Below are positions 38,029 through 64,000 of a stretch of 64,000 bases of DNA, in pieces (position 1 is the stretch's first letter; the number at the start of each line of letters is the position of its first letter). The DNA lies in assembly GCA_016873635.1 (NCBI GenBank), contig VGWJ01000007.1:4908-68907 (forward strand). The letters run 5' to 3'. The notes below the pieces were generated by a model, which did no database searches, was not told the DNA's origin, and saw nothing but the letters and a program-made list of their open reading frames with translations. The translations under genes and the position numbers were made by a program. Origin of the DNA: Lentisphaerota bacterium. Its GTDB lineage: Bacteria > Verrucomicrobiota > Kiritimatiellia > UBA8416 > VGWJ01.

Positions 38029-40086
38029 TTAACGAAACTCCACTCCCGTCGCAAACTTCGTCGCGACCAGTCCGTCTTGCGGTTTGGCCCATTTCCGGCC
38101 ACCCGATTGAACGTTCTCGAAGGCCACCCCTTCAACCCGGTGCGACTCGTCAAAACCCGACAGTTCCGACGGAGGAATAGCGTTCCCTTCGATACGGATG
38201 TTACGGAACACAATGTCACGGACGTGGCCGCGCTCCGCGTCGCGACCGAAGCGCGACGGGAGGATCCTGACATCAGCCAGCATGCCTTCCGCGCCTTCCA
38301 CGCGGAGGTCTTCACAGATCACGTCGCTGACTGCGGCCTGGTCGCCATGATGAATGGCGACGACACCCCCGGGGCCTTCACCGTGAATGAGGTCGTTATG
38401 GGTGAAGCGGATCTTGCGGATATTGGCGGCGCGCGGCTCAAACCCCGCCTTCTTCCCGACCCAATCCGGCGCCCAGCCTTGGGTCAGGATCTCCAGCCCG
38501 TTCCCACGGACGCCGTTCCACAGGACGCAATCCCGCACGATCACGTTCTCCGTGTCCCGCTGGCAATCGAACTGGGTAAAGTAGGTCACGCCCCCCGACT
38601 TGACCGCCACGCAGGAGTCTTGCGTACGGATGAAACACTGCTCGACGGTTATCTCCCGACTGCCCACCGCGACCACGCCGTCGTCCCACGGGTTACCGCT
38701 GACGATCTTGACCCGGCGGACGGTCACACGATCGGAGCCCAGGATCGCCACCGCCCAATGCCGGCTGTCCAGGATGGTGAGGCCTTCCACCACGACATCC
38801 TCGGCGCGATTGATCTCGATCATCCGGGACTGCGCGGGTCCGAACACCCCGCCGTCGAGAATGCCCCGCCCCCGGATCTTCACGTTCTTGACCTCGTCCA
38901 TGAAGAACGCCCCCCGAACCACCGCGCCCCGTTCGATATAGACCGTCTCGCCCGACTTGACCGTGACTTTCCCGACCTCGTGGACCTTGCCCGCGGCATA
39001 GAACTTCACGCCCGGCGTGTCGGGTTTGGGGACGTCCTGCTCGGGCGGGTCGGCGAACAGGAACAATGGCTCACTGGGATCGCCGTTGATCTCCACGCTC
39101 AGAGAGGCGGGAGCACTGAGCGGGAACGTGATCTTATTGCCGGCGATTTGGGGGCGAATGCCCAAGGCCTTGGGCCGTACGTCCACACTTTGAATCGCCC
39201 CCGCGCACTCGATTTCGACATTCCCCGCCTGCGCCAGGTCGAATCCGGCGAACGCCGCGCCCGGGGTGTAATAGACCACGCGTTCGCGCCCATCGATGCG
39301 GGTCAGTCCCATCGGCGGGTCCGGCTGGCCAACACGCGTGTAGCGGACAGCACACTCGCGCCCATCGAAGCTGACCTTCGTCACCGGGGACAGGCGTTCG
39401 AGCGTCAGGCCGGCGACCATCAGGCGGTACGGAGGCAGGCCCGCCCCGGCCAGCGCGCGGGGCGCCAGCCGCGTCTCCTTGTCTTTGCCCAGCAAATCGC
39501 CCATGCCGCCGAGGCCCGATTCATCGGGCGCCGAATCGCGCGGCGTGTCAGGCCCGTCATTCAGGCTCAACTTGTTGATGGCGTTTTGCCGCTGGGCAAG
39601 ATAGGCAGGAAGCGACGCGGCGGTTTCCGATTCGCCAACGCCCCAATCGACGGCGATTGGAAGCTGGCCGGGCTTGTCCACAACGAAATCGAAATACACC
39701 GGCGCCAGTTTCCCTTGCTCGGGAAACCAGGACGCGGCTGCAAAGACACATTTGCTTCCTCCCGCCACCACCCGCAAAACGACCGCCTTGCCCAGCACCT
39801 GATCCTGCCCCGTGCTGCCCACCAGCGCGTGCAACCGGTAGCGGCCGGGTGACAGGGATTCCGAGGTCTTCGCGCGGACGATTTGTCCTTCATGGCCGAG
39901 CGTCAGATCGGCGACGAGCGCCTGCCCCGAGGCCCGCGCCTTGTCGAGCGCCGTTCGGACCGAAGCGGCATCAGCCGCCACAGCCACTGGGACTTCACCA
40001 GGGCGCGGCGCCGGGGCCTTGGCTGCCTGCGCCGCTGCCGCCAGAGCGACTGCCGCCAGCGCTAACCAACTTGTTGTCTTTTTCAT
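38029..40086 (-). CDS. secreted protein: unknown N-terminal module plus GH28/GH49-like beta-helix (paralog B)
   Basis: 685-aa ORF, collinear with the 15568-17670 protein. Both have the same ALDKARASGQALVADLTLGHEG start and the GNPWDDGVVAVGSREITVEQCFIRTQDSCVAVK helix. The signal peptide is MKKTTSWLALAAVALAAAAQA. Confidence 0.78.
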   Translation of the reverse strand: MKKTTSWLALAAVALAAAAQAAKAPAPRPGEVPVAVAADAASVRTALDKARASGQALVADLTLGHEGQIVRAKTSESLSPGRYRLHALVGSTGQDQVLGKAVVLRVVAGGSKCVFAAASWFPEQGKLAPVYFDFVVDKPGQLPIAVDWGVGESETAASLPAYLAQRQNAINKLSLNDGPDTPRDSAPDESGLGGMGDLLGKDKETRLAPRALAGAGLPPYRLMVAGLTLERLSPVTKVSFDGRECAVRYTRVGQPDPPMGLTRIDGRERVVYYTPGAAFAGFDLAQAGNVEIECAGAIQSVDVRPKALGIRPQIAGNKITFPLSAPASLSVEINGDPSEPLFLFADPPEQDVPKPDTPGVKFYAAGKVHEVGKVTVKSGETVYIERGAVVRGAFFMDEVKNVKIRGRGILDGGVFGPAQSRMIEINRAEDVVVEGLTILDSRHWAVAILGSDRVTVRRVKIVSGNPWDDGVVAVGSREITVEQCFIRTQDSCVAVKSGGVTYFTQFDCQRDTENVIVRDCVLWNGVRGNGLEILTQGWAPDWVGKKAGFEPRAANIRKIRFTHNDLIHGEGPGGVVAIHHGDQAAVSDVICEDLRVEGAEGMLADVRILPSRFGRDAERGHVRDIVFRNIRIEGNAIPPSELSGFDESHRVEGVAFENVQSGGRKWAKPQDGLVATKFATGVEFR

Positions 40087-40131
40087 TGAGGCCGTCCTAT
40101 TCCGTCTATTTACCTCGTTCGCCCGCTTCTC

Positions 40132-42141
40132 TCATGGCGCGCCGGTTGCGTCCCTCACCAGGCGACAACCCGTATTGGGCAGGCGTGAATCCGGAATCCA
40201 CTGGCCGCGTTCCGCGGAACGGCAGTATTTGGGATAGTCGGCCCAACTGCCGCCGCGGAGGATCCGGTTGCCGCCCGACCGCGGGCCTGCCGGATCCGTC
40301 ACGGCCACATTCGGGTATCTGGCCGCCCTTCCCCTGGCATCCGCGGCCGCGACGCCCGTAAATCCGCCGGCTTGCCGGTCGAGGCACCACTCCCACACAT
40401 TGCCGTGCATGTCGTACAACCCCCAGGCATTGGGCTTCTTTGTGCCGACGGCGTGCGTGCTGCCTTCGCTGTTGCCAAGGTACCAGCCCATCTCGTCCAA
40501 CGCCCCGGCATACGGGCCTTTGGTTCCCGCCCGGCAGGCGTATTCCCATTCCGCCTCGGTTGGCAGACGCAGTCCGGCGCCGGCCTTCTGGGAGAAGGTC
40601 TGGCAATCCTCCCACGACACCATCTCCACCGGCGCGGCCGAACCCGCGTTCTTGAAACGAGAGGGGTTGCTTGCCATCACCTTTTCCCATTGCGCCTGCG
40701 TCACCTCGGTCTTCGCCATGTAGAACCCTTTCGTCAGCGTCACCCGGTGCTGCGGCCACTCGAAAGGCGTCGCCCACGTCTCGTCTTCGGGGCTGCCCAT
40801 GAAAAAGTATCCCGCCGGGACGTAGACCATTTCCATACCGGTAGCCTCGTGCACGATCGCCTGCGCCCAACCGGACTGCGTGTAGGGCTCGGCCTGCGTC
40901 CCGGCTGCCGCGCGGCAGCCCGGCGGCACGCGCAAGGTCAGATCCCTCGGCGCCGCCGCCGAAGAGCCCGTCGCGGCCGGCGCCTGGAATGAAGTCCCCT
41001 CCTTTGCCGGCGCGGGGCCTGTGCTGGCCGGAACCGTCAACGGCGTCAAGGCCACGGCCACGCGAATCCCAACTTGCGGCGGGATGCGGGTGGGAGCGTG
41101 CAACGGACGGGAGGTGGGTTTGGGGCCGCTGCGCATAATGTGATACGGCCCGCCACAGGTGCCGGGCGGACTGAAGCCGGGCCCCACCGGGTCGATCGTG
41201 GGCGCGCTTGCGAAAGACTCCGCGCACCAATCCCAACACCACTCGGCAACATTCCCGATCATGTCATACAAGCCCCAGGCGTTGGGCTTGAATGACCCAA
41301 CGGGCGCCGTTCCGTCAAATCCGCCGGTCTTCGCCTCGGATCTCGGCTCTTTACCCGTTCCGTTGCAGCGAGCACAGACACCCGCAGTCTCTCCGGACGA
41401 CACGTCGTCCCGACCGGTTCCCTGACAAGCCGAACAAGGCTTCTGCCCTGCTGGATCGCCGGGCACAACGTCCGGCACATTGGCGTACTTGTGCATCTCC
41501 TTCTCGTCATTCCCGAAGAAGAACAACGTCTGGCTCCCGGCACGGCAGGCATATTCCCACTGCGCCTCGGTGGGCAACGAAACCTTCCTGCCGATCTTGA
41601 CCGACATCTTCTCGCAGAACGCCACGGCCAACTCCCACGGCCATACCTGCTCCACGGGCCGCGTCTTGCCCTTGTACTTGCTGGGGTTGTTGCCCATCAC
41701 CTGCTCGTACTGCTCCTGCGTCACCTCGTAGACGCCCATGTAGAACGGCTGACTGATCGTCACCTCGCGCGGAGGGCCTTCATACTCGCGCGGATCTTTC
41801 ATGGTGTGAACCTGCTGCAAATAGGTGGCGACGGGAACATTCGCCCCATCCTTCCGAACCAGCACGGTGCCCCCTTCAACGGATGCCACCTCGTGCATCG
41901 GCACGCCCATGATGAACGTGCCGGCGGGGATGAGGGTCAACTTCATCAAGACGCCGCCGCCGAGATCCAGATCGGTCTGCACATCCTTGAGCCCCGCGCG
42001 CTTGGCGTAATCTGCCACCGACTCTTTGCCATCCCATAGGGGCCATGGCGACTTCGCCATCACCGACGGTTCCGCGGCATTCACCATGCCCGCCGACAAC
42101 ACGGCCGCCGACAGCGCCAGCCAACTTCTTGTCTTATGCAT
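40132..42141 (-). CDS. secreted tandem FGE-sulfatase-domain (SUMF1/EgtB/PvdO-type) protein with a CxxCxGxG x2 insertion
   Basis: 669-aa ORF with leader MHKTRSWLALSAAVLSAGMVNA and two FGE-type domains (TEAQWEYACRAG, PNAWGLYDMIGNVAEWC and PNAWGLYDMHGNVWEWC, RGGSWADYPKYCRSAER). The insertion CSACQGTGRDDVSSGETAGVCARCNGTGK lies at 41350-41436. Confidence 0.85.
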   Translation of the reverse strand: MHKTRSWLALSAAVLSAGMVNAAEPSVMAKSPWPLWDGKESVADYAKRAGLKDVQTDLDLGGGVLMKLTLIPAGTFIMGVPMHEVASVEGGTVLVRKDGANVPVATYLQQVHTMKDPREYEGPPREVTISQPFYMGVYEVTQEQYEQVMGNNPSKYKGKTRPVEQVWPWELAVAFCEKMSVKIGRKVSLPTEAQWEYACRAGSQTLFFFGNDEKEMHKYANVPDVVPGDPAGQKPCSACQGTGRDDVSSGETAGVCARCNGTGKEPRSEAKTGGFDGTAPVGSFKPNAWGLYDMIGNVAEWCWDWCAESFASAPTIDPVGPGFSPPGTCGGPYHIMRSGPKPTSRPLHAPTRIPPQVGIRVAVALTPLTVPASTGPAPAKEGTSFQAPAATGSSAAAPRDLTLRVPPGCRAAAGTQAEPYTQSGWAQAIVHEATGMEMVYVPAGYFFMGSPEDETWATPFEWPQHRVTLTKGFYMAKTEVTQAQWEKVMASNPSRFKNAGSAAPVEMVSWEDCQTFSQKAGAGLRLPTEAEWEYACRAGTKGPYAGALDEMGWYLGNSEGSTHAVGTKKPNAWGLYDMHGNVWEWCLDRQAGGFTGVAAADARGRAARYPNVAVTDPAGPRSGGNRILRGGSWADYPKYCRSAERGQWIPDSRLPNTGCRLVRDATGAP

Positions 42142-42173: not shown

Positions 42174-44273
42174 TCACTCGATTGCCTCGCCCAGCACCAG
42201 GAACGAGGTCAGCGGCGTGTCGAGGCGCAGGCGCAAGCCAGCATCGCACAACGCCTGTCCGTCAAGGATGCGAACCCTGCCGTCGGGCTCGGTGGTCACG
42301 CGATAGCGCCGCGCGGGATCAACGCCCCGGAAACGCAGACAGTACTCGTCCGTCTCGGCATTGACCAGCCGGAACACGCCGGCCGCGACACGGCTCCGGT
42401 CAACGGCGGCCAGTTCCAGGGCGCACCAACCGCTGCCGTCGGCTCCGGGTATGACCGGGGTGTGGTGGTAGACACGGGCCTCCCGGTGGAAAGGCCGAAT
42501 GAACTCCTTGTAGATGCCGAGGTATTTCTTGGTGGCGCGCAGCACTTCGGGGTTGATCTCGCCCAGGCTCGGCGTCAGTCCGCTGACCGTCGGATGGCAG
42601 AGCACGATGACGTGCAACTGGGTTTCGAGGTTGCCGCGGTAACTGCCGTTCATGCAGACACCGAAGATCCGGTCAAGCATGTCCGGGGGCATGGCCATGG
42701 ACATACCGTTGAGGATCCGCACCGTGCGCGGCATCCGCATCCAGTCGGAGATCCAGGCCGTGGTGAAGCGGCTGTTCATGCCCAGGTCCGTGCGGCCGCC
42801 GCCGCTGGAGCAGTTCTCGAGTTGCAGCGCCGGGTAGCGGGCGCGCACGGTGTCGAAGATGGCATACATGGCCTCGACATGCCGCCAGAGGGTGTTCTCC
42901 TGGCGACCGTCGCGCGGGTTGAAGCCGCCCTCCCAGGCGTCGAGATTGTAGTCGAGCCGGAACATGTCGAGCCGGTACCGCTCGATCAGGCGCAGGATGG
43001 TGCTTTCGACATACTCCCGCACCACCGGCTTGGCGAGGTCGAGGACGCGGTCCACCGGCTTGCCGTAGCGCGTGATGAACCAGTCCGGGTGCTCGGCCGC
43101 CAGCTTCGAAGCCTTGCCGGCGCTCTCGATCTCCACCCACAGGCCGCAGCGCAGCCCCTTGCTCCGGGCATAGTCGAAGGCGGGGAAGAGATCGTTCGGG
43201 AGACGGTTGCCGGTCTGCCAGTCGCCGCTCGTGTCGAACCAGGGCGTGTTGGCGTCGGCAAACCAGCCGGCATCGACCATGAACAGATCGGCGCCGACCT
43301 CCGCGGCGATGTCGATCTCGCGCCGCAGGCCCGGCTCGGACATCTCATGCTGCATGTAGCCCCAGTGGTTGTAGATCACCGGCTGGACGCCGTCGCCGAC
43401 ACGGTAGAGAACATGCCGCCGCAGATACGCATGCCAGCACTGCACGGCATCGTCGAAACTCACATGGTTGAGACCGAAGTGGACCTCGGGCAGGTCCACA
43501 CACTCGCCGGGGGCGATGACGCGCATGGGCGCAAGCGCATCCGGACGCAGCGCAAACTGCAGCTTGCAGTTTCCGCCGCGCGAGTAGTCACAGTAGAAAC
43601 TCATGCGCCAGTTCGCCGACCAAGACAGGCCGGCGACCATGAATCCGCCACAGAGGTTGTTGTGCGCCACCGCGAACGGCGTCGTATGGCCACTGCGGCC
43701 GTGGCGCGACCCGAAAACCAGCTCGGTGTTGAGCGGAACCGGCTGCCACTGGAAGTTGCCTTCGTTGCCCCACTCCGTGTCCTGCAGCCAGCCGACCCGG
43801 TACGGCACGTCCCCCGTATCGTGCAGGTTCTCGCGCACGTTGTCCGACATGGCCCAGACGGCGCCGGACAACGGCGTGACCGAGGTCAGACCCAGCGCGG
43901 TCGAGGCCGAGGTGTTCCGTAACCGCATCCGCCGGCGGAAAAAGCCGTCCCCGGCGGCGAGAGTGACAATCTCCAGTTCCACCGGCTTGCGGGCATGCCG
44001 CAGCACCAGGCGCACGCTGGGCGCCGCCGTGTCCGCGCCAAGGGTCTCGGCCTCGGCCAAGGCCCAGTCAAAGGAGAGCGATTCGCCGTCGATTTGCAGA
44101 TCGAAGGCGATCAGTTCCTTGCCTTCGTCGTTGGCGTAGTAGGGAACGCCGGTATCCTGCAAGGAGGCGGCGATAAGCCGCCCGTCAATCAGGCGCTCGG
44201 TGTAGAGGGTGGTGCCCGAGTGGTAGCGCCACCCGCGCTGGGGTTCGTTCAGTTCGGTAATACGTGTTGTCAT
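42174..44273 (-). CDS. GH36-family alpha-galactosidase-like enzyme (no signal peptide)
   Basis: ORF trimmed to ATG 44273 (MTTRITELNEPQ...). GH36-type motifs are present: FMVDAGWF, GLWVEIE, FRLDYN and LENCSSGGGRTDLG. Confidence 0.82.
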   Translation of the reverse strand: MTTRITELNEPQRGWRYHSGTTLYTERLIDGRLIAASLQDTGVPYYANDEGKELIAFDLQIDGESLSFDWALAEAETLGADTAAPSVRLVLRHARKPVELEIVTLAAGDGFFRRRMRLRNTSASTALGLTSVTPLSGAVWAMSDNVRENLHDTGDVPYRVGWLQDTEWGNEGNFQWQPVPLNTELVFGSRHGRSGHTTPFAVAHNNLCGGFMVAGLSWSANWRMSFYCDYSRGGNCKLQFALRPDALAPMRVIAPGECVDLPEVHFGLNHVSFDDAVQCWHAYLRRHVLYRVGDGVQPVIYNHWGYMQHEMSEPGLRREIDIAAEVGADLFMVDAGWFADANTPWFDTSGDWQTGNRLPNDLFPAFDYARSKGLRCGLWVEIESAGKASKLAAEHPDWFITRYGKPVDRVLDLAKPVVREYVESTILRLIERYRLDMFRLDYNLDAWEGGFNPRDGRQENTLWRHVEAMYAIFDTVRARYPALQLENCSSGGGRTDLGMNSRFTTAWISDWMRMPRTVRILNGMSMAMPPDMLDRIFGVCMNGSYRGNLETQLHVIVLCHPTVSGLTPSLGEINPEVLRATKKYLGIYKEFIRPFHREARVYHHTPVIPGADGSGWCALELAAVDRSRVAAGVFRLVNAETDEYCLRFRGVDPARRYRVTTEPDGRVRILDGQALCDAGLRLRLDTPLTSFLVLGEAIE

Positions 44274-44302: not shown

Positions 44303-46453
44303 CTAGTCCACATACGTCACGACCGGATCCCACACCACGCGGTCCGCCGGCGTGGGCTGCTCCCGGCTCTTTTCGACGACGAAATACAACACGTCGCCCG
44401 CCGCCAGTTCTACGGTGAAGTCCGGCGACTCGGCCTTGCCATGCTCCAACTTGCGGCGTGCCCGCAGCGGCGATACGGCTCCGGCGTGGCGATGCAGGAT
44501 TTCGACCATCGCCTCGCCGCCCGTGTCCGCAATCTCAATCGGACCTTCGATCCGGACTTTCCCGTCATGCGGCGCCACCCAGGCGCGCACCGCCGCGCAG
44601 ACGGGACCCGGCCGCATATGGAAGTGCCCCACTTCCGGACCGTGGCCCCTTTGGTCCCAGATATCGGTCCGCACCCAATTCGGATGCTCGAACCGCATGT
44701 TCATGTACCACGGCCCGGTCACCCGCGTCTCATTCCGGTACGGCGTTTCCCGCGCCGGCTCCCGCTCCTGGTTGAACCAGCCGTGCTTGCCCACCACGCC
44801 GGAGAAGCAGTCCGACGCCCGGTAACTCTCCGCTCCGTACTCGAACAGCAGGTGCCGGATCGCCGTTCCCGTCGCCGCCGCGTTCTTCTCCCCGCGCACG
44901 ACCACCTTGATCGTATGCTCTTGCTTCGGATCCAGGCCGGTCTTGATAAAACCGAACTGGAACGGCGTGCCGGCCGCCGCCCAGCAGTCCACCGTCTTTT
45001 CCAGTTTGCCGTCCAGATAGACGTCCGCCTTGCCCGCGTCCGGCCCCTTGAACACGCGCCAGTAGATCGCGTCCGAACGGAAAACCAGCCCCGCACTGGC
45101 GCCCTTCACGTCGCTCGTCCGCGCCGCGTTCTCATAATACAGTTCGCCGTTCTCTTGCCGCCAGTCGCCCGCGTACACCGTTTCGGCGCTGAGGCAGCCC
45201 ACCCGCCGCGTCCGCCGGCTCTCGATCGGGTCCGACGAGTCGAAAACGGGCTCCAGGGGATACCATTGCGCCGACTCCGTGCTGACGATGCGCCACGGAT
45301 GCGACTGCGAACCCATGGGATTGAAGGCCGGCGCCAGGCACCCCGTGGCCGGCGACGTGTTCATGCCGGGCGCAACCTCTATCCGATAGGCGCCGCCAAA
45401 CTTTTGGTTGAAACAAGTATAAAGGAACATGGTCTTGCCGGCAACGAACAGGTTGGTCTTGCCCTCATCCACCACGTGGAAGCCGATGGTCTCGTTTCGC
45501 GGCCCGCCCCACAAGTCCTCGCCCAGGGGAACGATCGGCCCCCAGTCCTGCTTGGACAGATCGCGGCAAACGGTCAAGCCGCTGCCGTAGGTGAAGGCCA
45601 GATACTTGCCGAGCGCCGTGTTGTAGATGACACGAAATCCGTTCACGTAGGAGCCCTTGCCGCCGAGGCCCGGCTCCTCCCAGGCCCCGTTGTAGAACCG
45701 TTTCCACTTGCCCGGCGCCATCTTGTCCCGGATCGCGCAGCGCGCCACCCGGTAGCGGAGCAAACCCGGCCGCCGCACGCCCGGCTTGAACCAGGTGTAA
45801 TGCGACGTGAACAGGTAGATGTACCCGCCGCGTTCGTCCACGTAGAGCATGAAATCCCCATCGCCCCCGTCCCAGTAGAGACCGGAGAACTCCGCCCCCC
45901 GGCGCATCCGCTCCGGCACATCCCGCGTCACGATCGGCCCCTCGTACCGCCACGACAGGCCCTTGTCGCCGCTCGAGGCCAGGTGGATCTGGCGGTTGAT
46001 GGTCGGATGCGAGGCGTTCGGAACCTCCACCGTCGGGTACCCCGGCGTCTCGCAATGCATCGCCGTGTAGAGCCGCTTCCCGTCCTCGTCGTACCACATC
46101 GCTCCGCCAAGCATGTAGGGCCGCTCGACGGGAAACGGCGGCGCGTCGCCGTCGGGCTGCATCACGGCGTTCTCAATGTTCGTCCCCTTGAACCGGTGCG
46201 TGCGCGTCCCCGCCGGCCGGTCGATCATCCAGAACTCATCCCCGATCTTCACGCCGCACGGTGGAAAATCCCCGGTGTACCGCCCGCCCAGATAGTCCGG
46301 CAGTGGATCAAGTTTCTCCAGCGGCGTCACCTTGACCGAAAACGGCAGCGCCGGGGTTTCCGCCTGCGCACGTTGGCTGTCCATCCCCATCCTCTTCTCT
46401 GTCTGTTGCATGGATTGCTCTTCCTTTATGCCAGTCGTTGAAAATTCCGTCAT
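44303..46453 (-). CDS. hypothetical protein, Asp-box-containing beta-propeller-like N-terminus plus two beta-sandwich-like C-terminal modules (candidate glycosidase)
   Basis: 716-aa ORF with no signal peptide. It has one Asp-box-like SSGDKGLSW. The C-terminal part (VYLDGKLEKTVDCW...HTIKVVVRGEKNAAATGTAIRHLLFEY) is typical of CBM-like modules. An alternative start, ATG 46411, has a stronger AAAGGAAGAG RBS. Confidence 0.6.
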   Translation of the reverse strand: MTEFSTTGIKEEQSMQQTEKRMGMDSQRAQAETPALPFSVKVTPLEKLDPLPDYLGGRYTGDFPPCGVKIGDEFWMIDRPAGTRTHRFKGTNIENAVMQPDGDAPPFPVERPYMLGGAMWYDEDGKRLYTAMHCETPGYPTVEVPNASHPTINRQIHLASSGDKGLSWRYEGPIVTRDVPERMRRGAEFSGLYWDGGDGDFMLYVDERGGYIYLFTSHYTWFKPGVRRPGLLRYRVARCAIRDKMAPGKWKRFYNGAWEEPGLGGKGSYVNGFRVIYNTALGKYLAFTYGSGLTVCRDLSKQDWGPIVPLGEDLWGGPRNETIGFHVVDEGKTNLFVAGKTMFLYTCFNQKFGGAYRIEVAPGMNTSPATGCLAPAFNPMGSQSHPWRIVSTESAQWYPLEPVFDSSDPIESRRTRRVGCLSAETVYAGDWRQENGELYYENAARTSDVKGASAGLVFRSDAIYWRVFKGPDAGKADVYLDGKLEKTVDCWAAAGTPFQFGFIKTGLDPKQEHTIKVVVRGEKNAAATGTAIRHLLFEYGAESYRASDCFSGVVGKHGWFNQEREPARETPYRNETRVTGPWYMNMRFEHPNWVRTDIWDQRGHGPEVGHFHMRPGPVCAAVRAWVAPHDGKVRIEGPIEIADTGGEAMVEILHRHAGAVSPLRARRKLEHGKAESPDFTVELAAGDVLYFVVEKSREQPTPADRVVWDPVVTYVD

Positions 46454-46483
46454 CTCGATTCTCTCTAAGCCTGACGCCTCCCC

Positions 46484-53125: not shown

Positions 53126-53137
53126 CGCCTTCCTCCC

Positions 53138-55084: not shown

Positions 55085-55109
55085 TGAGACCTTCCTTCTT
55101 TGTCTTTCT

Positions 55110-55404: not shown

Positions 55405-57393
<1,989 letters not shown>

Positions 57394-57439
57394 TATCGCA
57401 CTCCCTGTTCGGTTTCCATTCAACCTCGTATTGCGCTTT

Positions 57440-57589: not shown

Positions 57590-60427
57590 CTAATCCCTTC
57601 TTCCCTGGCGCCCACCCCCCCCTGCCACCTGCGCCACCGCGCCAGCCAGGTCCAACAGCTTGGCGTCTTCCATGTCCTGCATGTAGCGGGGCATGAACGC
57701 GCCATTCCAGAAGGTCCGGTCCCGTTCGCCGGTCTTCGGCGCGAGGTAGCGCTCCGCCCGCTCTTTCAACTCGCCGCTGAGCAGCCCCTTGTGCAGCGCG
57801 TGGCGCACGAAGATGACCGCCTCGGCCAGCTCCAACCCTTCGCGGAACATCTCAAACCGTTCGGTCGCCACCGGACCGTCGGGGGCGGGATAGAGCAGCG
57901 ACATGGTGGTCCGATCCATACCCCCCCAACCTGCCCCGCCGGCAACCGGCGGAACGTCATACCGGCCGGTCGGTGATTTCACCTTGAAGACATCCGCCCC
58001 GAACTCGCCGACTCCGTCAAAGCCCCGGTGCAGGGTGTTGATCTCGATCATCCGACGCACTTCCCGCAGCGCTGACTTGTCCATGATGGCGCCACGGGCC
58101 GTCGTGCCATAGGAATTGCGCCGGGGGCCATCGAGCGTCCAGAGCGGCGGAAGCTTGCCGGTCGGGGTCGCCTTCACGCTGTAGGAGTGGCGGACGGTCA
58201 TCCGCACGATCTTCTCCGGATCAACTCCCGCTTGCGGGTTCTGCTTCACCCAGGCCTCAAGACCACCGGGGTTGGCGAAACCAAAAGCCGTCCCCATCGT
58301 GGAACCATCGTCGGCGCCTTTGAACATGCCCACGAAGCGGGCGCCTTCAAAGGTCCAGTGGCTGATCCACGTCCACTGGCCCTCCGGCCAGAGCTTGTGG
58401 GCGTTCTCCACCATGGCGGGTTGTGGCGTGCCGAATTCCCGGTTGTATCCCAGGGTCGTCTGGCTCAGCCAGCCGCGATTCTTGAGCCGCAGGAGCATTT
58501 CATCGAAGACCGGCTTCCAGAAGGCGTAGCTCTCGGGCGTGCCGGGCGCGGGTTGGGGCATCTTGTCCAACTTGCCGGTGGCCGGATCGAGTACGGAAAC
58601 CATCGTGCCGCCCCATTCAGGCACATTCCGGTCGCCAAGGGTGGATTGAGCCCCCGGCCAGCAGTTTAGCCGCAAAGTATTGGGGGTCCCGACGGACTTT
58701 GCGACCATGTCCAGGTACTTGTCGAAGACCGTGAAGTCGTGTTTGAACGACCCGTCCGGCTGCTTGATCCAGCGCACGATCGTTTCCGGGTTGTCCCGCC
58801 CGCAGAAATTGATGGTCAGGTTGGCCTGAACCTGACGCGAGTTCAACTCCGCCAACAAGGCCAGCGACTTGCCCACCAGCTCGAGGTGCCGGTCGGAGTA
58901 ATTGGGCACGTCATAGTGCCGGGCCACCACTTCCTCAGCTTCATAGAGACCGTTCTGAATCCGGAAGTCCTTGGGGTCGGGCATCGTCCACGCGGACACC
59001 TTCACCCGCAGCGGCGCCTTGGTTTCCGCCAGCCCCTCGGCCACCACGCGCACCTGCCCCTCGTACTCGCCCGCCGGGAGGTCGCGCGGCACCTTCACGG
59101 TGAACCACAGCGGCGCCATCGCCACCGTCGGCAGGGCCCGGCGCTCCAGCTTCTGGTGGTAGAAGCTACCCTTCGGCAAGGATGCCTCGATGACGGGGAT
59201 CTCCGCCGGAATGGCATCGAGCAGTCCGTCGAACCGATACGCCGGCGGCGCATAACTCTTCGCCGTGGTCGCCGGCACTGCATAGCGTACCCGCACGGCC
59301 GCGGCGGGCAATTTCACCCCCGCCTTCGCCTGGAGATCCGTCACCGTGACCTTCAACCCCTTGATCGGCTGATCGGAGCTGACCATCAGCCGGCCGGAGA
59401 AGACGCTGTTGCGGGCGGCGCGAATTTCGATCGGCCGCAGCGGCCGGGTGGTATCGCCGTAGTCGAAGGTGGTGACGGTGTCGTAGGGCATGACGTTCCA
59501 GACCTGAATGCCTACCGGCCTAGGCCCCGTTGCCGAAGTTCCCGGCGAGACCGTCAGTCGTGCTTTCAGGATGCCGATCGGGGGCCAGTCAGCCCCGGAG
59601 CCCTTGGCCTGCACCGCCTGGCTGGGAAACGGGGCGGCGCGACATTCGATGGCGAGCACGTTGACGCCAGGGCGCAGGAGCGCAGCGGGAATCGCGAAAT
59701 CTCTCAACTGGCGGTCGCGCAGCACGAGGCGTTCCTTGTTCTTGTCGTCATCGGCCGGGAGCGGCTTTCCATCCGGCATCAGGAACGCCTCCAGCGGATA
59801 GTCCTTGGCCACGATCTCCGCCTGATCCTTCTGGGCGTCGGCCAGATCGGCGCGCATCGCTTCCTTGCCGTTGACATAAACCACCACCCCGCCCCAGTAG
59901 TCCAGGGAAAGCCGGAGCGACTTCACCTGCGCCGGGTCCTTCACCGTGAACGTGGCGCGCGTCAGCAACTTGGTCGTGTCGAATTGGTTGAAGGTCCCGG
60001 TGCTGCCGAAGAGATTCCCCGTCTGATGGGCAGGAAGCCACAACGAACCCGAAGGCAGGGGCAACCGCTCGCGGGGCCAGGCGCCAGCGTCGAAGGTCGG
60101 GCTGGCCCAATCCGGCGCCGGCGCCGGCGTGGCATCTGCGGCGTCCCAATCACCGGTCAGATTCCAGGAACCTCTCTGATCAACACTTTCCACACGGCTG
60201 AGCTCAAAGCTGTTGATCTTTATTTTCACCCGGCTCAACGAGCCGTCCGCGTTGCGGACATAGTTCGGGCCGGCGACGCGGAACTGTGCCCAGAGCGTGT
60301 TTTCGCCCAGCAACACCGTTTCATCAACCGCGGGTGCCGCCGGCCTTGCCGGTTCCGCCGCCTGCACCCACCCCGCCGCCAACACGGCGGCCACCGACAT
60401 TGCCAACCAGCTCATTGTCTTCTTCAT
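57590..60427 (-). CDS. large secreted hypothetical protein (jelly-roll-like N-terminal region; possible DUF4091-like glycosidase domain)
   Basis: ORF trimmed to ATG 60427 (MKKTMSWLAMSVAAVLAAGWVQA). The segment SLRLSLDYWGGVVVYVNGKEAMR resembles GH2-type sugar-binding jelly rolls. The rest is unassigned, and the DUF4091 idea rests on weak recollection. Confidence 0.6.
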   Translation of the reverse strand: MKKTMSWLAMSVAAVLAAGWVQAAEPARPAAPAVDETVLLGENTLWAQFRVAGPNYVRNADGSLSRVKIKINSFELSRVESVDQRGSWNLTGDWDAADATPAPAPDWASPTFDAGAWPRERLPLPSGSLWLPAHQTGNLFGSTGTFNQFDTTKLLTRATFTVKDPAQVKSLRLSLDYWGGVVVYVNGKEAMRADLADAQKDQAEIVAKDYPLEAFLMPDGKPLPADDDKNKERLVLRDRQLRDFAIPAALLRPGVNVLAIECRAAPFPSQAVQAKGSGADWPPIGILKARLTVSPGTSATGPRPVGIQVWNVMPYDTVTTFDYGDTTRPLRPIEIRAARNSVFSGRLMVSSDQPIKGLKVTVTDLQAKAGVKLPAAAVRVRYAVPATTAKSYAPPAYRFDGLLDAIPAEIPVIEASLPKGSFYHQKLERRALPTVAMAPLWFTVKVPRDLPAGEYEGQVRVVAEGLAETKAPLRVKVSAWTMPDPKDFRIQNGLYEAEEVVARHYDVPNYSDRHLELVGKSLALLAELNSRQVQANLTINFCGRDNPETIVRWIKQPDGSFKHDFTVFDKYLDMVAKSVGTPNTLRLNCWPGAQSTLGDRNVPEWGGTMVSVLDPATGKLDKMPQPAPGTPESYAFWKPVFDEMLLRLKNRGWLSQTTLGYNREFGTPQPAMVENAHKLWPEGQWTWISHWTFEGARFVGMFKGADDGSTMGTAFGFANPGGLEAWVKQNPQAGVDPEKIVRMTVRHSYSVKATPTGKLPPLWTLDGPRRNSYGTTARGAIMDKSALREVRRMIEINTLHRGFDGVGEFGADVFKVKSPTGRYDVPPVAGGAGWGGMDRTTMSLLYPAPDGPVATERFEMFREGLELAEAVIFVRHALHKGLLSGELKERAERYLAPKTGERDRTFWNGAFMPRYMQDMEDAKLLDLAGAVAQVAGGGGRQGRRD

Positions 60428-60527
60428 TGAGATACTCATTCTTCGTCCGTCTATTTCGTTTTTCACATCGTCTTTCTACTTCGTCTTCCGCATCCCCTGC
60501 GCCTGCCAGTCGCCGGAGACGAGGCAC

Positions 60528-63050
60528 CTATTTCTTTTTCTCCTCCCGCCTATACTGGATCAGCGCCGAACCCGGCGCGGTGATACGTTCGTCCCTGAGA
60601 TCGCGCGGGCCGGCGCCGACCGCGAGCAACGCCGAGTCGTGCCCCCGCACGAAGCGCAGCACCAACAAATGCTCGCCCTTCGACAACTCCCTCAGCACCA
60701 TACGGTCCCGGATGGTGGGCGGATTGGTCACGTTCCCCAAGATGCCGTTCGAGAACGTCTCGCTGATCACGACGCCGTCCAAGTACGCCTCATACCACCA
60801 GTCCGCACCGACACCAAACACCGCCCGGCCGCTTTCCGGCGCGTTAAACGGCAGATACACAAACGCCACCTCGCCATCGGCCTTGAGCAGGCTGGCCAGA
60901 TCCATCACACGATCCCGGAAGGCAAAGGTTCGGCCCCGGGCACGGACACCGCCCAATGCGACCTCCGCCGGCACCTGACGCAGCGCCTCGGTGGACGGGA
61001 CGCCCGCCTCGCGCGTAAACGGCCCGAAGGCCACGCCTTCCCCCGGCAAGGCGATGTCCAGACAGTCGTCCGGCGGCATCTTCTCGAACGCCTGGTCGCG
61101 AATTTCCACCGTCATCCCCTTCGCCATCAAATCGCGCCCGGAGACGGACATGGGCGAACCGCCGGCGTCGAGGTTCGTGACCTCGTACCGCGCCGCCGGA
61201 TCGAGGCCGCGCAGGAAGAAGGTTTGCGCCGCCTCCACGCACTGGGCGCGCCGGAAGGCCAGGATCAGGCCGCCGCCAAGATCCGGGCGGTCGAGTTGGT
61301 AGGCGAACCAGTCTTTCGGTGCGGTCGAGCAACTTGTCAGCGCGTAGTAGTCACCGGTGTAGTACGGCAGTGCCCGGCGGTATTCCTTGATCATCCGCCG
61401 GTGCCACTCGACCGGATAGTCCGGGGCGGGCGCCAACGGCGCATGGCCCAAACCAACGGGATGAAAAAGACCGAAGGGAATGCCGCCGCTCCAACTGCTG
61501 CGAAAATTGTAGGTGTCGCCCGGACGGGCCGGCGCCCCGCCGCCCACCAGGGGGACCCAGTGCGCCAGACCGTGCGTGCCGGCCTGCATCCCGATGGGGT
61601 CGGCGTGGGGATGGCAGTTGTAGTCGCTGCGCCACAGGACCAGGCTGCGGCTGATCGTCTCCAGATCAATGCGCGTGCCGCCGCCGCCGCAGTTGTCAAT
61701 CAACATGCCCGGGTGCCGCCGGAGCAGCTCGTCCCAGAAGGCGTAGAAGCCCTCGACGCCGCGGATTTCCGTCATCCCTTGCCGATCCGGCGCATCCCCG
61801 CTGCCGTCGCCGATGGGAACCACCCAGTCATCCCGGAAGTAATCCACGCCGTTTTCCGCCAGCGTCGCCGAGATGTAATCAAGCAGGTATTGGCGCGCCT
61901 CGGGAATCCCGATGTTGATGTTCTGCGGCGCATGCGGCTTCTCGCGCAGGACGGCGGAGTTGAACGATGCGGACAGGCCTTCCAGCCACTCGGGGTGCTC
62001 TTTCACCAGCGGCGAATCGGCCACGGCGCCGTACGGCGCAAACCACAGCAACAACTTCATGCCCGCGGCATGCGCGGCGTCCGCAATGGGCTTCAGCCCC
62101 CGCGGATGCACCGTGCGGTTCACCCGCCAGTTCCCGATGTGGTGGGGAAAGACATCGTTGCAAAGGTTTTGGAACTCATCCGTTTCGTGGTCGGGGCCGT
62201 ACCAGCAAGCGTCAATCCAGTAGCAGTTAAAGGGCAGACGATGCTCCCGGATGAATTGGATATTCTTGAGATGGTTATGCGTCTTCATGCCGCCCCACGA
62301 TGTGCTACAGATGGGCGGTTCGACCGTGCGGCCGTTCACCTTCGGGAGGTGGTGCGTCACCAGGTGCCGGCGCAGCAGGTGGTGCCCGCGCTCGCGTTCC
62401 CCTTCCCAGGAGAGAATAAGAATGCGCGGTGTGCGGATCTCCTCGCCGGGATGCAGCCGGAGGTGCGTCCTGCTCATGCCGGCACACAGGCGGACGCCGG
62501 CGCCGTCCCCGGAACGCTGGATCGTGCATTTCCAGTTTCCAGTCCAGCCGACGGCCCCGATGACGCCGCGCCCGCCGAGATCCAGGTTGAAGAAAGGCAG
62601 CACCTGGCGGGAGCCGCAGGAGGCCAATTCGGTCGCCTGCCCCGCCGGCAACAGGCGCTCCTCCAGCGCAAAGTCGTCTATCACGGCTTTGGTGCCCTTG
62701 GAATAAGAGATGCGCGGTTGGGCATTCTGGGCAACCTCGTTGGCCATGTCCAAGGCGAGGACATTCTCCAGGATCGGCGTGTCCGCCGTGCCGGTGTTCT
62801 TGAACCACACCGTCCACTCGACCGCCGGCGAGTCGGCGTAATCCACCGCCACGCAGCGCACCTCCAGACCGGTTTGGGGATCGGTCCACGTCAGCGTGTG
62901 CTGGGTACGGCTGGCGTCGAACCGTTCGTCGGCCACTTTCGACGGCCACTTCGCCAGCAACGGCGCGGAGGGCCGCCCATCATAGGTGAAGGAAAACGGC
63001 AGGCTGGACTTGCCATTCATCAGGTGTTTCTCGAACCACGTGTTTTTCAT
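60528..63050 (-). CDS. GH36/clan-D alpha-galactosidase-like enzyme with a C-terminal GADWW beta-sandwich-like domain (no signal peptide)
   Basis: ORF trimmed to ATG 63050 (MKNTWFEKHLMNGKSSLPFSFTYDG). It has CYWIDACWYG, GMKLLLWFAPY, DYFRDDW and IDNCGGGGTRIDLE. The C-terminal ~190 aa (..VGADWWYEAYLDGVVIS..GEHLLVLRF..) is homologous to the GH4 N-terminal domain at 2043-2598. Confidence 0.75.
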   Translation of the reverse strand: MKNTWFEKHLMNGKSSLPFSFTYDGRPSAPLLAKWPSKVADERFDASRTQHTLTWTDPQTGLEVRCVAVDYADSPAVEWTVWFKNTGTADTPILENVLALDMANEVAQNAQPRISYSKGTKAVIDDFALEERLLPAGQATELASCGSRQVLPFFNLDLGGRGVIGAVGWTGNWKCTIQRSGDGAGVRLCAGMSRTHLRLHPGEEIRTPRILILSWEGERERGHHLLRRHLVTHHLPKVNGRTVEPPICSTSWGGMKTHNHLKNIQFIREHRLPFNCYWIDACWYGPDHETDEFQNLCNDVFPHHIGNWRVNRTVHPRGLKPIADAAHAAGMKLLLWFAPYGAVADSPLVKEHPEWLEGLSASFNSAVLREKPHAPQNINIGIPEARQYLLDYISATLAENGVDYFRDDWVVPIGDGSGDAPDRQGMTEIRGVEGFYAFWDELLRRHPGMLIDNCGGGGTRIDLETISRSLVLWRSDYNCHPHADPIGMQAGTHGLAHWVPLVGGGAPARPGDTYNFRSSWSGGIPFGLFHPVGLGHAPLAPAPDYPVEWHRRMIKEYRRALPYYTGDYYALTSCSTAPKDWFAYQLDRPDLGGGLILAFRRAQCVEAAQTFFLRGLDPAARYEVTNLDAGGSPMSVSGRDLMAKGMTVEIRDQAFEKMPPDDCLDIALPGEGVAFGPFTREAGVPSTEALRQVPAEVALGGVRARGRTFAFRDRVMDLASLLKADGEVAFVYLPFNAPESGRAVFGVGADWWYEAYLDGVVISETFSNGILGNVTNPPTIRDRMVLRELSKGEHLLVLRFVRGHDSALLAVGAGPRDLRDERITAPGSALIQYRREEKKK

Positions 63051-63214
63051 GCTTTTCACACTCGCCAAGGCGGGCTATCGCTCGCAACCCAATCTTCGTC
63101 GTAAGCTTTGGCGTAAACTTCGTCGACAGGGCTTACGCGAAAACTCGCGACAAAGATCTGACGCATCTGCGTCACATGTCTAAACGGAACAGCCTGTCGC
63201 TGATAACTGATCAC

Positions 63215-63380
63215 CCCAAACGGAGCAGTTGACAGGATGTACAGGATGCTACATCCAGAAGATCAACAGGATATGTCGGAAAGACCTTTCACCAGTTTGG
63301 TGAAAGGTCTTTCCGACGTAAATCCATTCCGCCGATCCTGTTATCCTGTCTACTCCTTCTGATCTGCTCTTTCTAGGATC
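63215..63380. mobile_element. MITE-like palindromic element with a perfect 20-bp central hairpin
   Basis: It is flanked by a 9-bp direct repeat, ACTGATCAC (63206-63214 and 63381-63389). The sub-terminal inverted repeats are GAGCAG..GACAGGATGTACAGGAT (left) and ATCCTGTTATCCTGTC..CTGCTC (right). The central hairpin is GTCGGAAAGACCTTTCACCA-gtt-TGGTGAAAGGTCTTTCCGAC (63275-63317). GC is lower than in the flanks. Confidence 0.45.
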
Positions 63381-63395
63381 ACTGATCACTTCATC

Positions 63396-64000
63396 CTACC
63401 GGTTCACGGTCATGACGACGCGAAAGCCCCCTTCAGAATGCCCATGCAGCGGACGTGTCGCGGCCCGGCAGAATGCCGGAGACGATTTGAAACTTCCGCC
63501 TCGACTGATCTTGTAGGAACCAACACCCTCAGGCCACGTCCCGTCCGGACCGGTCGGATCCAGTGTGCCCTCTTTATGATACGGACGCCCCCGTTTGCGA
63601 TTGACATCGTCATTGCCCATCCAGTCGTTGACCCACTCGCTCACGTTGCCGTGCATGTCGTACAGACCGAACTTGCTGGGTTTGAATGACCCGACCGGCG
63701 CGTAGCCGTCGAAGCCGTCGTCGTAGGTCACATCCTTTCCTTCCTCGTTCAAGGTCTTGTGATTCTTGCTGTCATAGTTGGCGTACTGACAGAGCTTTTC
63801 CTCTTCGTCCCCGAAGCAGAACCGCTCGGTGCTCCCCGCCCGGCAGGCATATTCCCACTGCGCCTCGGTCGGCAGGGTGACGGTTTGACCGGTCAGCGTT
63901 GAGACCCGTCTGCAAAATTCCACCGTGTCTTCCCAGCGGTTCCCGTCAACGGGAAGGGTCCTCCCCCGGGATTGGAGCGAGCCGTAGTGGGCAAACTGGA
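63396..64000 (-). CDS. FGE-sulfatase-domain protein, C-terminal part (gene continues past the right edge)
   Basis: The ORF-track M at 63923 is a GTG. The frame stays open upstream to 64000 (..QFAHYGSLQSRGRTLPVDGNRWEDTVEFCRRVS..), paralleling the 50355-51446 protein. Motifs present: PTEAQWEYACRAG, FGLYDMHGNVSEWV and RGGSFKSSPAFCRAATR. Confidence 0.8.
   Translation of the reverse strand, partial: QFAHYGSLQSRGRTLPVDGNRWEDTVEFCRRVSTLTGQTVTLPTEAQWEYACRAGSTERFCFGDEEEKLCQYANYDSKNHKTLNEEGKDVTYDDGFDGYAPVGSFKPSKFGLYDMHGNVSEWVNDWMGNDDVNRKRGRPYHKEGTLDPTGPDGTWPEGVGSYKISRGGSFKSSPAFCRAATRPLHGHSEGGFRVVMTVNR

Follow-up and report, generated by a model that had tools for sequence, protein, structure and literature searches.

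The window, i.e., the whole 64,000-nucleotide stretch of DNA analysed here, carries an array of seven minus-strand genes that runs from position 40132 to the window end and in which every gene matches the FGE-sulfatase family (PF03781) in Pfam (Table 1; genes and proteins are named below by their first coordinate). These genes hold 11 such domains in total, with E-values spanning 2.9e-30 to 1.5e-81, and four of the seven (40132, 46484, 53138, and 55405) have two PF03781 stretches each. A seven-gene FGE-like array is far beyond chance. Genes 50355 and 48484 are joined by a stop/start overlap (ATGA, at 50355-50358). A promoter and terminator scan returned nothing above shuffles. The gene cut by the window end extends on the parent contig to window-equivalent position 64478 and encodes 360 aa (L003:2916-3998). 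Orthologs of 40132 keep the 2x CxxCxGxG insert of its N-terminal domain, and the 55405 protein has an 85% identical ortholog in a Verrucomicrobiota metagenome-assembled genome (MAG). The labels of the closest MAGs conflict (Verrucomicrobiota, Lentisphaerae, Planctomycetes, Pirellulales), and the host, described as a freshwater PVC-group bacterium, is therefore placed only to the PVC superphylum.

Table 1. Features of the FGE-like array and of other genes in the window
Positions	Strand	Feature	Evidence
15568..17670	-	Second GH28-like paralog, same N-terminal module as 38029	Pfam GH28; 66% identical to 38029 protein
34380..35285	+	AraC-family regulator	Pfam HTH_18 / HTH_AraC
38029..40086	-	GH28-like beta-helix protein with N-terminal module, secreted	Pfam GH28, E 2.2e-12
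40132..42141	-	Tandem FGE-like protein, N-domain with 2x CxxCxGxG insert	Pfam E 4.9e-78
42174..44273	-	GH36-type, leaderless	Pfam Melibiase, E 2.6e-43
44303..46411	-	702-aa protein, unknown family, leaderless	
46484..48451	-	Tandem FGE-like protein, Sec-type leader	Pfam, two stretches, E 3.5e-72
48484..50358	-	Fusion of GH-associated N-terminal beta-sandwich module and C-type FGE-like domain	Pfam FGE, aa 392-620
50355..51446	-	Single-domain FGE-like protein, N-type, RGGSW..C retained, leader	Pfam E 4e-38
51472..53007	-	Glycine-rich protein, secreted	Pfam Gly_rich_2, E 4.7e-18
53138..55084	-	Tandem FGE-like protein, leader	Pfam, two stretches, E 1.5e-73
55405..57393	-	Tandem FGE-like protein (N-type + C-type domain), leader	Pfam, two stretches, E 1.5e-81
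57590..60424	-	GH123-like protein, 958 aa, secreted	Pfam GH123_cat, E 8e-15, and GH123 N-terminal domains
60528..63050	-	GH36-type (Melibiase), leaderless	Pfam Melibiase, E 2e-24, and GH36C
63396..64000 (cut by window end)	-	Single-domain FGE-like protein, N-type, RGGSF..C retained	Pfam E 2.9e-30

Export of the encoded proteins was assessed with a heuristic that looks for a K/R-containing n-region, then a 12-residue hydrophobic core with a mean Kyte-Doolittle value of at least 1.9, and then VNA|AEP. It was positive for all FGE-like genes (7/7), as well as for the GH28-like, glycine-rich, and 958-aa genes; the two GH36 genes and 44303 gave negative results. The FGE-like leaders end in VNA|AEP and contain no lipobox Cys; their MKKTMSWLA start is common to the GH123-like protein too. 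A preliminary description made from the sequence alone had listed seven genes with 11 FGE-sulfatase domains and signal-peptide-like leaders, and Pfam, the heuristic, and the sequence itself, as regards coordinates, strand, and ATGA overlap, all agree with it.

Its account of the neighbouring genes needs some amendment. The GH28-like, glycine-rich, and two leaderless GH36-type neighbours are all recovered by Pfam, but the Calx-beta assignment of 51472 is not (E<=0.01), Gly_rich_2 being found instead. The product of 57590, listed as a secreted protein of 958 aa, does have a leader and can be further identified as GH123-like; a second GH123-like copy lies directly upstream of the window on the parent contig. 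Conversely, the supposed leaderless Asp-box protein encoded by 44303 is indeed leaderless, but is without an Asp-box assignment: it has no match in Pfam or NCBIfam, and in the PDB only a weak, unconvincing one to the cytochrome c oxidase assembly protein CtaG (E 0.02), while being conserved on sister contigs. Among the GH36-type proteins, 42174 has a weak NCBIfam match, under the cut-off, to a beta-L-arabinopyranosidase model, and 60528 is probably cytoplasmic. The AraC-family gene is the sole plus-strand gene near the array, and an AraC gene also adjoins the FGE pair on the related contig L048; it may be a regulator.

The Cys336/Cys341 pair (human FGE numbering) is the Cu(I) site of formylglycine-generating enzymes (FGEs), essential in the human as well as in the bacterial enzymes. 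Alignment of the 11 array domains shows that the Cys336 equivalent is absent from all of them, so that none has the pair. Seven keep the Cys341 equivalent, with D, N, or S in the Cys336 column (Asp in five of the seven; in 63396, S at the first position and C at the second), whereas the N-terminal domains of the four tandem proteins have neither Cys and have lost the whole segment, as had been noted from the sequence. The same trend is seen among the best 120 homologs, where both Cys occur in only one of 180 motif instances, the Cys341 equivalent is retained in 103, and Asp is the commonest residue in the Cys336 column (61/180). Aerobic FGEs (human SUMF1 and those of Streptomyces, Mycobacterium, and Thermomonospora) belong to the same Pfam family, have the same fold, and share with the array the motifs PTEAEWEYACRAG, GLYDMxGNVWEW, and RGGS, including positions aligned to the calcium-site region. 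Unlike them, the array proteins are without the copper site and the roughly 50-residue canonical insertion; they also have Sec leaders, a tandem organization, and no sulfatase context.

Regarding this last point, the preliminary description had seen no sulfatase in the 64 kb, and no Pfam sulfatase match is indeed present in the 43 open reading frames that span the window. The precomputed Pfam annotation of the contig flanks, searched at both ends, does not include one either; with the window, this covers about 72 kb of the 75,210-bp parent contig, from ~2.9 kb of the record onward. One contig end beyond the window carries the second GH123-like gene, and the other GH130, GH4, GH30, and GH71 genes and a gene for an unknown 787-aa protein. 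It would be very improbable that the array proteins are genuine FGEs whose sulfatase substrates are encoded in other parts of the genome, even though their PF03781 matches are strong, their database name is 'formylglycine-generating enzyme required for sulfatase activity', and PVC bacteria are commonly rich in sulfatases (PMC6388578). The missing Cys pair, the four domains devoid of the entire Cys segment, the sulfatase-free ~72 kb, and the export signals all speak against it, as does the best structure and sequence match, TvpA, which is non-catalytic. The earlier proposal that these proteins are not sulfatase maturases is thus well supported.

TvpA (Treponema denticola variable protein 1, PDB 2Y3C), a non-catalytic, ligand-binding DGR target with an FGE-type C-type-lectin fold, is the best sequence match, with an E-value of 5e-28 for one domain and 1.5e-41 for an 11-domain profile. 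It is also the best Foldseek match of an AF2 model of the 55405 protein (pLDDT 81, pTM 0.82), ahead of human FGE (probability 1.00) and PvdO; matches in the PDB include the C336S and C341S mutant structures of human FGE. Like the array proteins, TvpA is exported and has RGGSW......C with the Cys341 equivalent alone, G standing at the Cys336 position. In TvpA the variable region, which presumably binds the ligand, lies in the C-terminal segment, and the C-terminal tail is likewise the most variable part of the FGE-like domains: tail identity is 75-80% between orthologs and 15-25% between paralogs of the same locus, compared with 67-71% for the domain core. The former active-site loop is thus conserved among orthologs and different among paralogs. 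In contrast to TvpA, the array owes its diversity to paralogs that have diverged (60-85% DNA identity) and whose variable segment does not change from ortholog to ortholog; it also has a tandem two-domain architecture and lies in a GH locus. The TvpA match had raised the idea of a DGR, which was rejected: no reverse transcriptase domain is present in the window and none was seen on related contigs, nor is there a template repeat, all repeats being diverged coding paralogs without a non-coding tail copy.

PvdO raises another question, namely whether the array proteins could be enzymes that catalyse something else than the formation of formylglycine, such as a PvdO-like periplasmic oxidation or the modification of a glycan or aglycone, carried out through the Asp and the single Cys. 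PvdO is periplasmic, has an FGE fold without the Cys pair, shares YDMHGNV(W/Y)EW with the array, and has an acidic residue, Glu, in the Cys336 column; unlike the array domains, it does not retain the Cys341 equivalent. The Asp found there in five of seven domains, together with the Glu of PvdO, which Ringel et al. in 2018 are said to have found essential, therefore leaves room for a catalytic role, and the frequency of Asp and of the Cys341 equivalent in the best 120 homologs points the same way. PvdO is moreover the top NCBIfam match, and is genetically required for oxidation despite lacking the pair (PMC6206403). However, this match scores 162 bits, far under the equivalog cut-off of 500, the window contains no pyoverdine (pvd) genes, and purified PvdO is inactive and free of cofactor, so that this precedent is not a demonstrated enzyme (PMC6206403). 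In addition, the surroundings of the site vary strongly among paralogs, as a catalytic centre seldom does, the segment is gone altogether from four domains, and the nearest structure is non-catalytic. On balance, such a chemistry appears rather unlikely. The sulfoxide synthases EgtB, OvoA, and SenA were rejected as well. Their mark is an N-terminal DinB-like domain with an iron-binding His triad; the array proteins match only PF03781 in Pfam, reach 54 bits against a cut-off of 360 with the EgtB model, and have weak EgtB matches in the PDB (E 1e-6 to 1e-9).

Independently of gene order, a link to glycosidases is provided by the 48484 protein, whose N-terminal part is 44% identical to the N-terminal module of the GH28-like protein 38029. 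This module is rare. A word-indexed homolog search with it found four proteins only, and an exhaustive profile search was needed to find 37 representative clusters out of 1.84 billion, the module being N-terminal in all of them. Eight of the 24 carriers scanned have a classifiable C-terminal part, which is GH66-like in four, GH71/99 in two, GH28 in one, and FGE in one. The FGE domain of 48484 thus holds the slot of the GH-like parts, which suits a catalytic function of that domain, as considered above. The module is a beta-sandwich without a PDB match at E<1e-3, and the name carbohydrate-binding module (CBM) is therefore not justified; resemblances to the isopullulanase N-domain, the EclA lectin, and CBMs are weak and were not taken as evidence.

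Gene neighbourhoods in relatives also point, indirectly, to glycan degradation. Within the close tandem clade, five of six contigs have the genes among glycoside hydrolases, with GH71/99, DUF3604, GH31, FG-GAP, and GH36 as one set of neighbours, GH43, SASA, and GH28 on contig L055, GH28 on L054, and BNR sialidase, DHDPS, and MFS besides AraC on L048. A tandem FGE gene followed by a GH28-like gene forms an orthologous pair conserved in three genomes, with intergenic gaps of 45 nt in the window (40132 upstream, 38029 downstream), 19 nt in L054, and 35 nt in L055, where the two proteins are 74%/74% identical to those of the window. In distant homologs, by contrast, a Pfam census of 99 neighbours from 31 genomes is heterogeneous, without visible GH enrichment, and includes caspase, DUF4384, SASA, sulfatase, and housekeeping genes; an association with GHs throughout the family was rejected on this basis, and the link is claimed for the close clade only. 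This heterogeneity would also fit an array functionally unlinked to the glycosidases, i.e., a tandemly duplicated exported family, for instance for adhesion, sensing, or defence, whose place in a GH-rich region of a GH-rich genome is coincidental. GH genes are dense along the entire 75-kb contig, and GH adjacency is therefore expected from position alone. Yet different GH families recur beside close-clade genes on independent contigs, the FGE/GH28-like pair is kept in L054 outside any glycan locus, and the N-terminal module is shared with GH-type proteins, which together make the absence of a functional link quite improbable.

The tightness of the conserved pair, including in L054, raises the possibility that the FGE-like proteins bind the neighbouring secreted hydrolases, the GH28-like one first, as inhibitor or immunity factor, chaperone, or scaffold. 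To our knowledge, the ligands of characterised relatives with an FGE fold are proteins or peptides (the FGE substrate peptide, Tsi3-Tse3, PorK-PorN), and none of these relatives is known to bind a glycan, which counts against glycan binding by the array. Paralog-specific loops would suit partner-specific recognition. Tsi3-type T6SS immunity proteins are exported, non-enzymatic FGE-fold binders found in arrays of adjacent paralogs, and Tsi3 itself binds an effector protein (bioRxiv 10.1101/2021.05.21.445229). PorK/GldK and GldJ of the T9SS and gliding machineries, in which the FGE fold is a structural, non-catalytic periplasmic part and PorK assembles with PorN, are among the PDB and NCBIfam matches. 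Nevertheless, a hydrolase partner would be an unlikely explanation for the array: it has seven FGE-like genes for three or four secreted enzymes, and in 48484 the FGE domain replaces a GH part instead of accompanying it. No vgrG, tse3, or other T6SS genes are annotated in the window and contig flanks, and no T9SS genes were seen in the window; PorK/GldK and GldJ are Bacteroidota lipoproteins with T9SS partners, which the array proteins, devoid of a lipobox, are not, and the GldK model reaches only 144 bits against a cut-off of 350.

Taken together, it appears a nearly even chance that the array arose by lineage-specific expansion of a set of exported, non-catalytic, TvpA-type proteins with an FGE/C-type-lectin fold, acting as ligand-binding accessories of an extracytoplasmic glycan-degrading apparatus in an uncultured member of the PVC superphylum. 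Each paralog would recognise a distinct glycan or glycoconjugate epitope through its variable segment, and these proteins would hold or present the substrate to the secreted GH28-like and GH123-like hydrolases. The products could then be taken up, their breakdown being completed by the leaderless GH36 enzymes together with the phosphorylases and sugar-acid pathway encoded elsewhere in the window. In the tandem proteins, the degenerate N-terminal domain may be a structural or second binding unit. The FGE subclass is not known to have the loop architecture that carries the EPN/QPD and WND sugar-binding motifs of canonical C-type lectins. Elsewhere, the same domain clade occurs as a module at the C-terminus of kinases and caspases, and in fusions with dockerin, NPCBM, LamG, and LysM domains. 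The FGE fold is described as a reusable scaffold for ligand binding, both in DGR targets and in conflict systems (PMC7159879). The earlier suggestion that the family binds or modifies glycans alongside the neighbouring GHs gains indirect support from the recurrent neighbours in the close clade, the FGE/GH28-like pair, and the N-terminal module; a glycan ligand is nonetheless putative, and protein binding or another catalysis fits equally well.

Surface glycan-binding proteins of Bacteroidota polysaccharide utilization loci (SusD, SGBPs) offer a functional analogy only: they are non-catalytic, exported, encoded between glycoside hydrolases, and have paralog-specific binding surfaces. Their fold is unrelated, a SusC-like transporter is not found here, and glycan binding by the array proteins is only putative. 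We know of no SusC/D-type systems in PVC bacteria, and the uptake machinery of Verrucomicrobiota, Lentisphaerota, and Planctomycetota is poorly understood. A bolder version, which we regard as doubtful but worth stating, is that diversified secreted FGE-fold 'lectins' could be dedicated glycan-capture proteins of this lineage, tuned by the loop at the former active site, physically coupled to secreted hydrolases via the N-terminal module and gene pairs, and a counterpart of the Bacteroidota SGBPs. If true, it would explain the many oxygen-dependent-looking 'FGE' genes in strictly anaerobic PVC polysaccharide degraders, where multiple PF03781 genes have been reported and an alternative function suspected (PMC6388578). 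The locus is in this respect less new than 'uncharacterised' implied, since both the expansion of PF03781 in PVC bacteria and the FGE fold as a binding scaffold are published (PMC6388578; PMC7159879; bioRxiv 10.1101/2021.05.21.445229). No publication dealing with FGE-like proteins at glycan loci of PVC bacteria came up in literature searches.

For annotation, the FGE name is almost certainly wrong for this clade. It is carried by thousands of such proteins and inflates the sulfatase-maturation capacity attributed to PVC bacteria. Were the glycan-accessory role to be true, the family would represent a missing polysaccharide-capture component in Verrucomicrobiota, Lentisphaerota, and Planctomycetota, as well as a set of naturally diversified binding scaffolds, and the tandem-FGE/GH28-like pair provides a small two-gene system in which this role can be tested directly.

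Pfam assigns 11 FGE-sulfatase (PF03781) domains to seven genes of the window (E-values from 2.9e-30 to 1.5e-81), the count already reached in the preliminary description, within a sequence of 65% G+C that carries almost all of its genes on the minus strand (see table; proteins are named below by the window start of their gene). The ATGA overlap described earlier is likewise found, at 50355-50358. The gene formerly taken to encode a 958-aa secreted protein stands, its product now being recognised as GH123-like. Pfam did not recover the Calx-beta domain attributed to the glycine-rich protein, and the supposed Asp-box protein, of 702 aa, matches nothing in Pfam or NCBIfam and nothing convincingly in the PDB. 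Among the genes in the first 38 kb are those for GH4, GH130, GH94, GH106-like and GH65 enzymes, for another GH28-like protein and for an AraC regulator, as well as a catabolic set for sugar acids/2-oxoacids.

Features of the window, with residues aligned to Cys336 and Cys341 of human FGE (local alignment)
Position	Strand	Product	Cys336/Cys341 positions	88-nt cassette	C-terminal tail
3768-4940		URO-D-like
7482-8186		AbiEii-type nucleotidyltransferase toxin
15568-17670		GH28-like
19576-20883		LarA-like
27146-28276		URO-D-like
31674-32912		URO-D-like
38029-40086	minus	GH28-like beta-helix protein		40010-40097
40132-42141	minus	FGE-like, two PF03781 domains (Pfam)	C-type D/C; N-terminal absent/absent		40132-40150
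42174-44273	minus	GH36
44303-46411	minus	702-aa protein
46484-48451	minus	FGE-like, two PF03781 domains (Pfam)	C-type D/C; N-terminal absent/absent	48375-48462	46484-46502
48484-50358	minus	FGE-like, one PF03781 domain (Pfam)	N/C
50355-51446	minus	FGE-like, one PF03781 domain (Pfam)	D/C	51370-51457
51472-53007	minus	Glycine-rich protein		52931-53018
53138-55084	minus	FGE-like, two PF03781 domains (Pfam)	C-type D/C; N-terminal absent/absent	55008-55095	53138-53156
55405-57393	minus	FGE-like, two PF03781 domains (Pfam)	C-type D/C; N-terminal absent/absent	57317-57404	55405-55423
57590-60424	minus	GH123-like		60351-60438
60528-63050	minus	GH36
63396 to past window end	minus	FGE-like, one PF03781 domain (Pfam), 360 aa when complete	S/C

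Seven genes share an 88-nt 5' cassette (64-77% DNA identity) that takes in ribosome-binding region and start codon together with a leader, MK(K/R)T(T/M)SWLA...AAVLAAG.VNAAEP; three of them (GH28-like, glycine-rich and GH123-like) have no further relationship to the FGE-like genes. Each of the four tandem proteins terminates with the conserved sequence GCR(F/V/L)V..(A/G)GA(P/Q). The N-terminal FGE-like domain of the 40132 protein contains an insert (aa 228-261, window 41359-41460) with two CxxCxGxG motifs (CSACQGTG and CARCNGTG) that looks like a putative DnaJ-type zinc finger and is kept in the orthologs P0023, P0024 and P0026 while missing from the other paralogs. G+C is 0.60-0.62, and third-position GC 0.74-0.82, in the FGE-like stretches 46001-50000, 54001-56000 and 62001-64000, versus 0.64-0.68 and 0.82-0.88 in the remaining window.

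When a profile of the 11 domains is aligned to human FGE, the single Cys of the family falls on Cys341, and D, N or S takes the Cys336 position; the residues in the table come from aligning the domains locally to segments of TvpA, PvdO and the human and Streptomyces FGEs. In FGE, Cu(I) is bound by this cysteine pair, neither member of which is dispensable for catalysis. Both are present in one of the 180 RGGS motifs of the 120 best homologs, and structures of the C336S and C341S FGE mutants are among the PDB sequence and Foldseek matches. The flanks were read from the 75,210-bp JGI contig Ga0194125_10000369, of which the window is the reverse strand and which has near-identical counterparts in three sister samples; the source samples are JGI 3300020222, 3300020074, 3300020603 and 3300020221. 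Past window position 64000, the contig completes the 360-aa FGE-like gene and carries another GH123-like gene; past position 1, it has genes for a 787-aa protein of no known family, a GH30 and a GH71. Pfam finds no sulfatase in the window or in either contig flank, over about 72 kb of the contig. The preliminary description had reported the missing Cys pair, the lack of even a single Cys in the N-terminal tandem domains and the absence of sulfatases, and its doubts about a maturase are borne out: with the Cys pair lost, export signals present and no sulfatase found, the proteins are very unlikely to mature sulfatases, and that these are true FGEs is barely credible.

The best PDB sequence match and best fold match of the array proteins (55405 model: pLDDT 81, pTM 0.82) is TvpA (2Y3C), from Treponema. 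This ligand-binding protein is the variable protein of a diversity-generating retroelement and, like the array domains, has a single Cys (G at Cys336, C at Cys341). Such a retroelement was rejected for the window, which holds no reverse transcriptase and whose sole repeats are paralogous coding sequences with 60-85% DNA identity. Other characterised FGE-fold relatives bind peptides or proteins, FGE its substrate and PorK PorN. The array proteins might by analogy be partners or inhibitors of the neighbouring hydrolases, which we consider unlikely; the FGE-like protein Tsi3 binds the protein Tse3 (bioRxiv 10.1101/2021.05.21.445229). Assignment to known families was also rejected, with NCBIfam scores of 54 bits against a cut-off of 360 for EgtB-type enzymes (the DinB domain is lacking), 162 against 500 for PvdO, and 144 against 350 for PorK/GldK (no lipobox). 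PvdO has, in the Cys336 column, a Glu that is reportedly essential for it and is mirrored by the Asp of five of the array domains. This likeness favours enzymes with another chemistry, but purified PvdO was inactive (PMC6206403), and the odds of such an activity seem low.

The likeliest reading, which we propose tentatively, is that the array proteins would serve as non-catalytic binding accessories to the secreted part of a glycan-degrading apparatus, with a specificity particular to each paralog. Across 26 aligned close homologs, the C-type domain has a well-conserved core and varies strongly in three places: the loop that follows PAGxFxMG, residues 571-600 and, most of all, residues 611-650, between CRSAxR and GCR, where the FGE active-site loop and the TvpA variable region are located. 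Orthologs are 75-80% identical to the 55405 protein over residues 611-650 and 88% over the C-domain core, versus 15-25% and 67-71% for three paralogs of the same locus. As a sequence pattern, this points to stable, paralog-specific recognition, and does not look like either arms-race hypervariation or a conserved catalytic centre.

The close tandem clade occurs in six independent neighbourhoods in addition to the window. Two comprise GH2-like/GH71-99, tandem-FGE, DUF3604, GH31, a second tandem-FGE, FG-GAP and GH36 genes; a third (contig stretch L055) GH43, SASA, two unknowns, then tandem-FGE and GH28-like genes; a fourth (L054) the latter two genes amid housekeeping genes; a fifth BNR sialidase, AraC, MFS and DHDPS genes, then single-domain and tandem FGE-like genes; and the sixth three FGE-like genes and a discoidin-domain protein. 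The window pair 40132-38029 is orthologous to the L055 pair (74% identity for each protein) and homologous to the L054 pair (48% and 56%, respectively), with 19-45 nt between the paired genes in all three. Aligned to the Thermotoga exo-polygalacturonosidase 3JUR, both GH28-like proteins of the window retain the NTD-motif Asp, and in their DD motif Gln replaces the first Asp (TQDSC) but not the second; they may represent a divergent beta-helix hydrolase family or not be classical GH28 enzymes. The 99 neighbours recorded around more distant homologs, from 31 genomes, are led by DUF4384, SASA, caspase, penicillin-binding protein and sulfatase, with 2-4 proteins each; the GH association is limited to the close tandem clade and does not extend to the wider PF03781 family. 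There, Ser/Thr kinases and caspases have the same domain as their C-terminal module, and fusions of it to dockerin, NPCBM, LamG or LysM also occur, which fits a general extracytoplasmic recognition module and is silent as to its ligand.

Over its first ~240 mature residues, the 48484 protein shares 44% identity with the module at the N-terminus of the GH28-like proteins; this module is modelled as a beta-sandwich for which no significant structural match was found. An exhaustive profile search of 1.84 billion proteins placed this module in only 37 representative clusters, always directly behind the leader. Among 24 full-length carriers, eight have a classifiable C-terminal part, GH66-like in four, GH71/GH99-like in two, GH28-like in one and FGE-like in one, so that the FGE-like domain of 48484 occupies the slot of the GH-like part of the other classifiable carriers. 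At the level of sequence, the module is a second link of FGE-like proteins to GHs, independent of gene order; that the array has no functional link with the glycosidases strikes us as decidedly improbable. Several PF03781 genes had been noted in strictly anaerobic Kiritimatiellales, with an alternative function suggested (PMC6388578), and the FGE fold is an established binding scaffold (PMC7159879; bioRxiv 10.1101/2021.05.21.445229). What appears to be new is that one tandem clade lies systematically within GH loci, along with its conserved pairing with a GH28-like enzyme gene and the N-terminal module held in common with GH-type proteins.

By genome, the nearest relative is an uncultured Verrucomicrobiota MAG, with 85% identity for the 55405 protein; for a housekeeping-type dehydrogenase of the window, proteins carrying the labels Lentisphaerae and Planctomycetes reach 86-87% identity. 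On these labels, the organism can be assigned to the PVC superphylum and no more narrowly. In L008, a MAG labelled Pirellulales, a tandem FGE homolog (7073-9754, 78% identical) adjoins a PSD/PSCyt (DUF1592/1588/1585/1587) protein typical of planctomycetes; this label, set against the Verrucomicrobiota label of the closest full ortholog, implies either that the gene moved horizontally within the PVC group or that the contig was binned wrongly.

Two large leaderless proteins without a Pfam domain, the 702-aa 44303 protein and a 787-aa protein (16523-18886 of the related contig stretch L050), both lie between glycosidases and are retained on sister contigs; they are candidate carbohydrate-active enzymes outside the classified families. 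Midway through the carbohydrate cluster, a lone AbiEii-type toxin gene separates the GH106-like gene from the GH94 gene. Three URO-D-like (uroporphyrinogen decarboxylase family) paralogs are dispersed in the sugar-catabolic region, with no tetrapyrrole genes nearby. Finally, the LarA-like (lactate racemase family) gene lies amid sugar-acid genes (UxaE-like epimerase, aldehyde dehydrogenase, SDRs and 2-hydroxyacid dehydrogenase) and may encode a sugar-acid epimerase or racemase instead of a lactate racemase.
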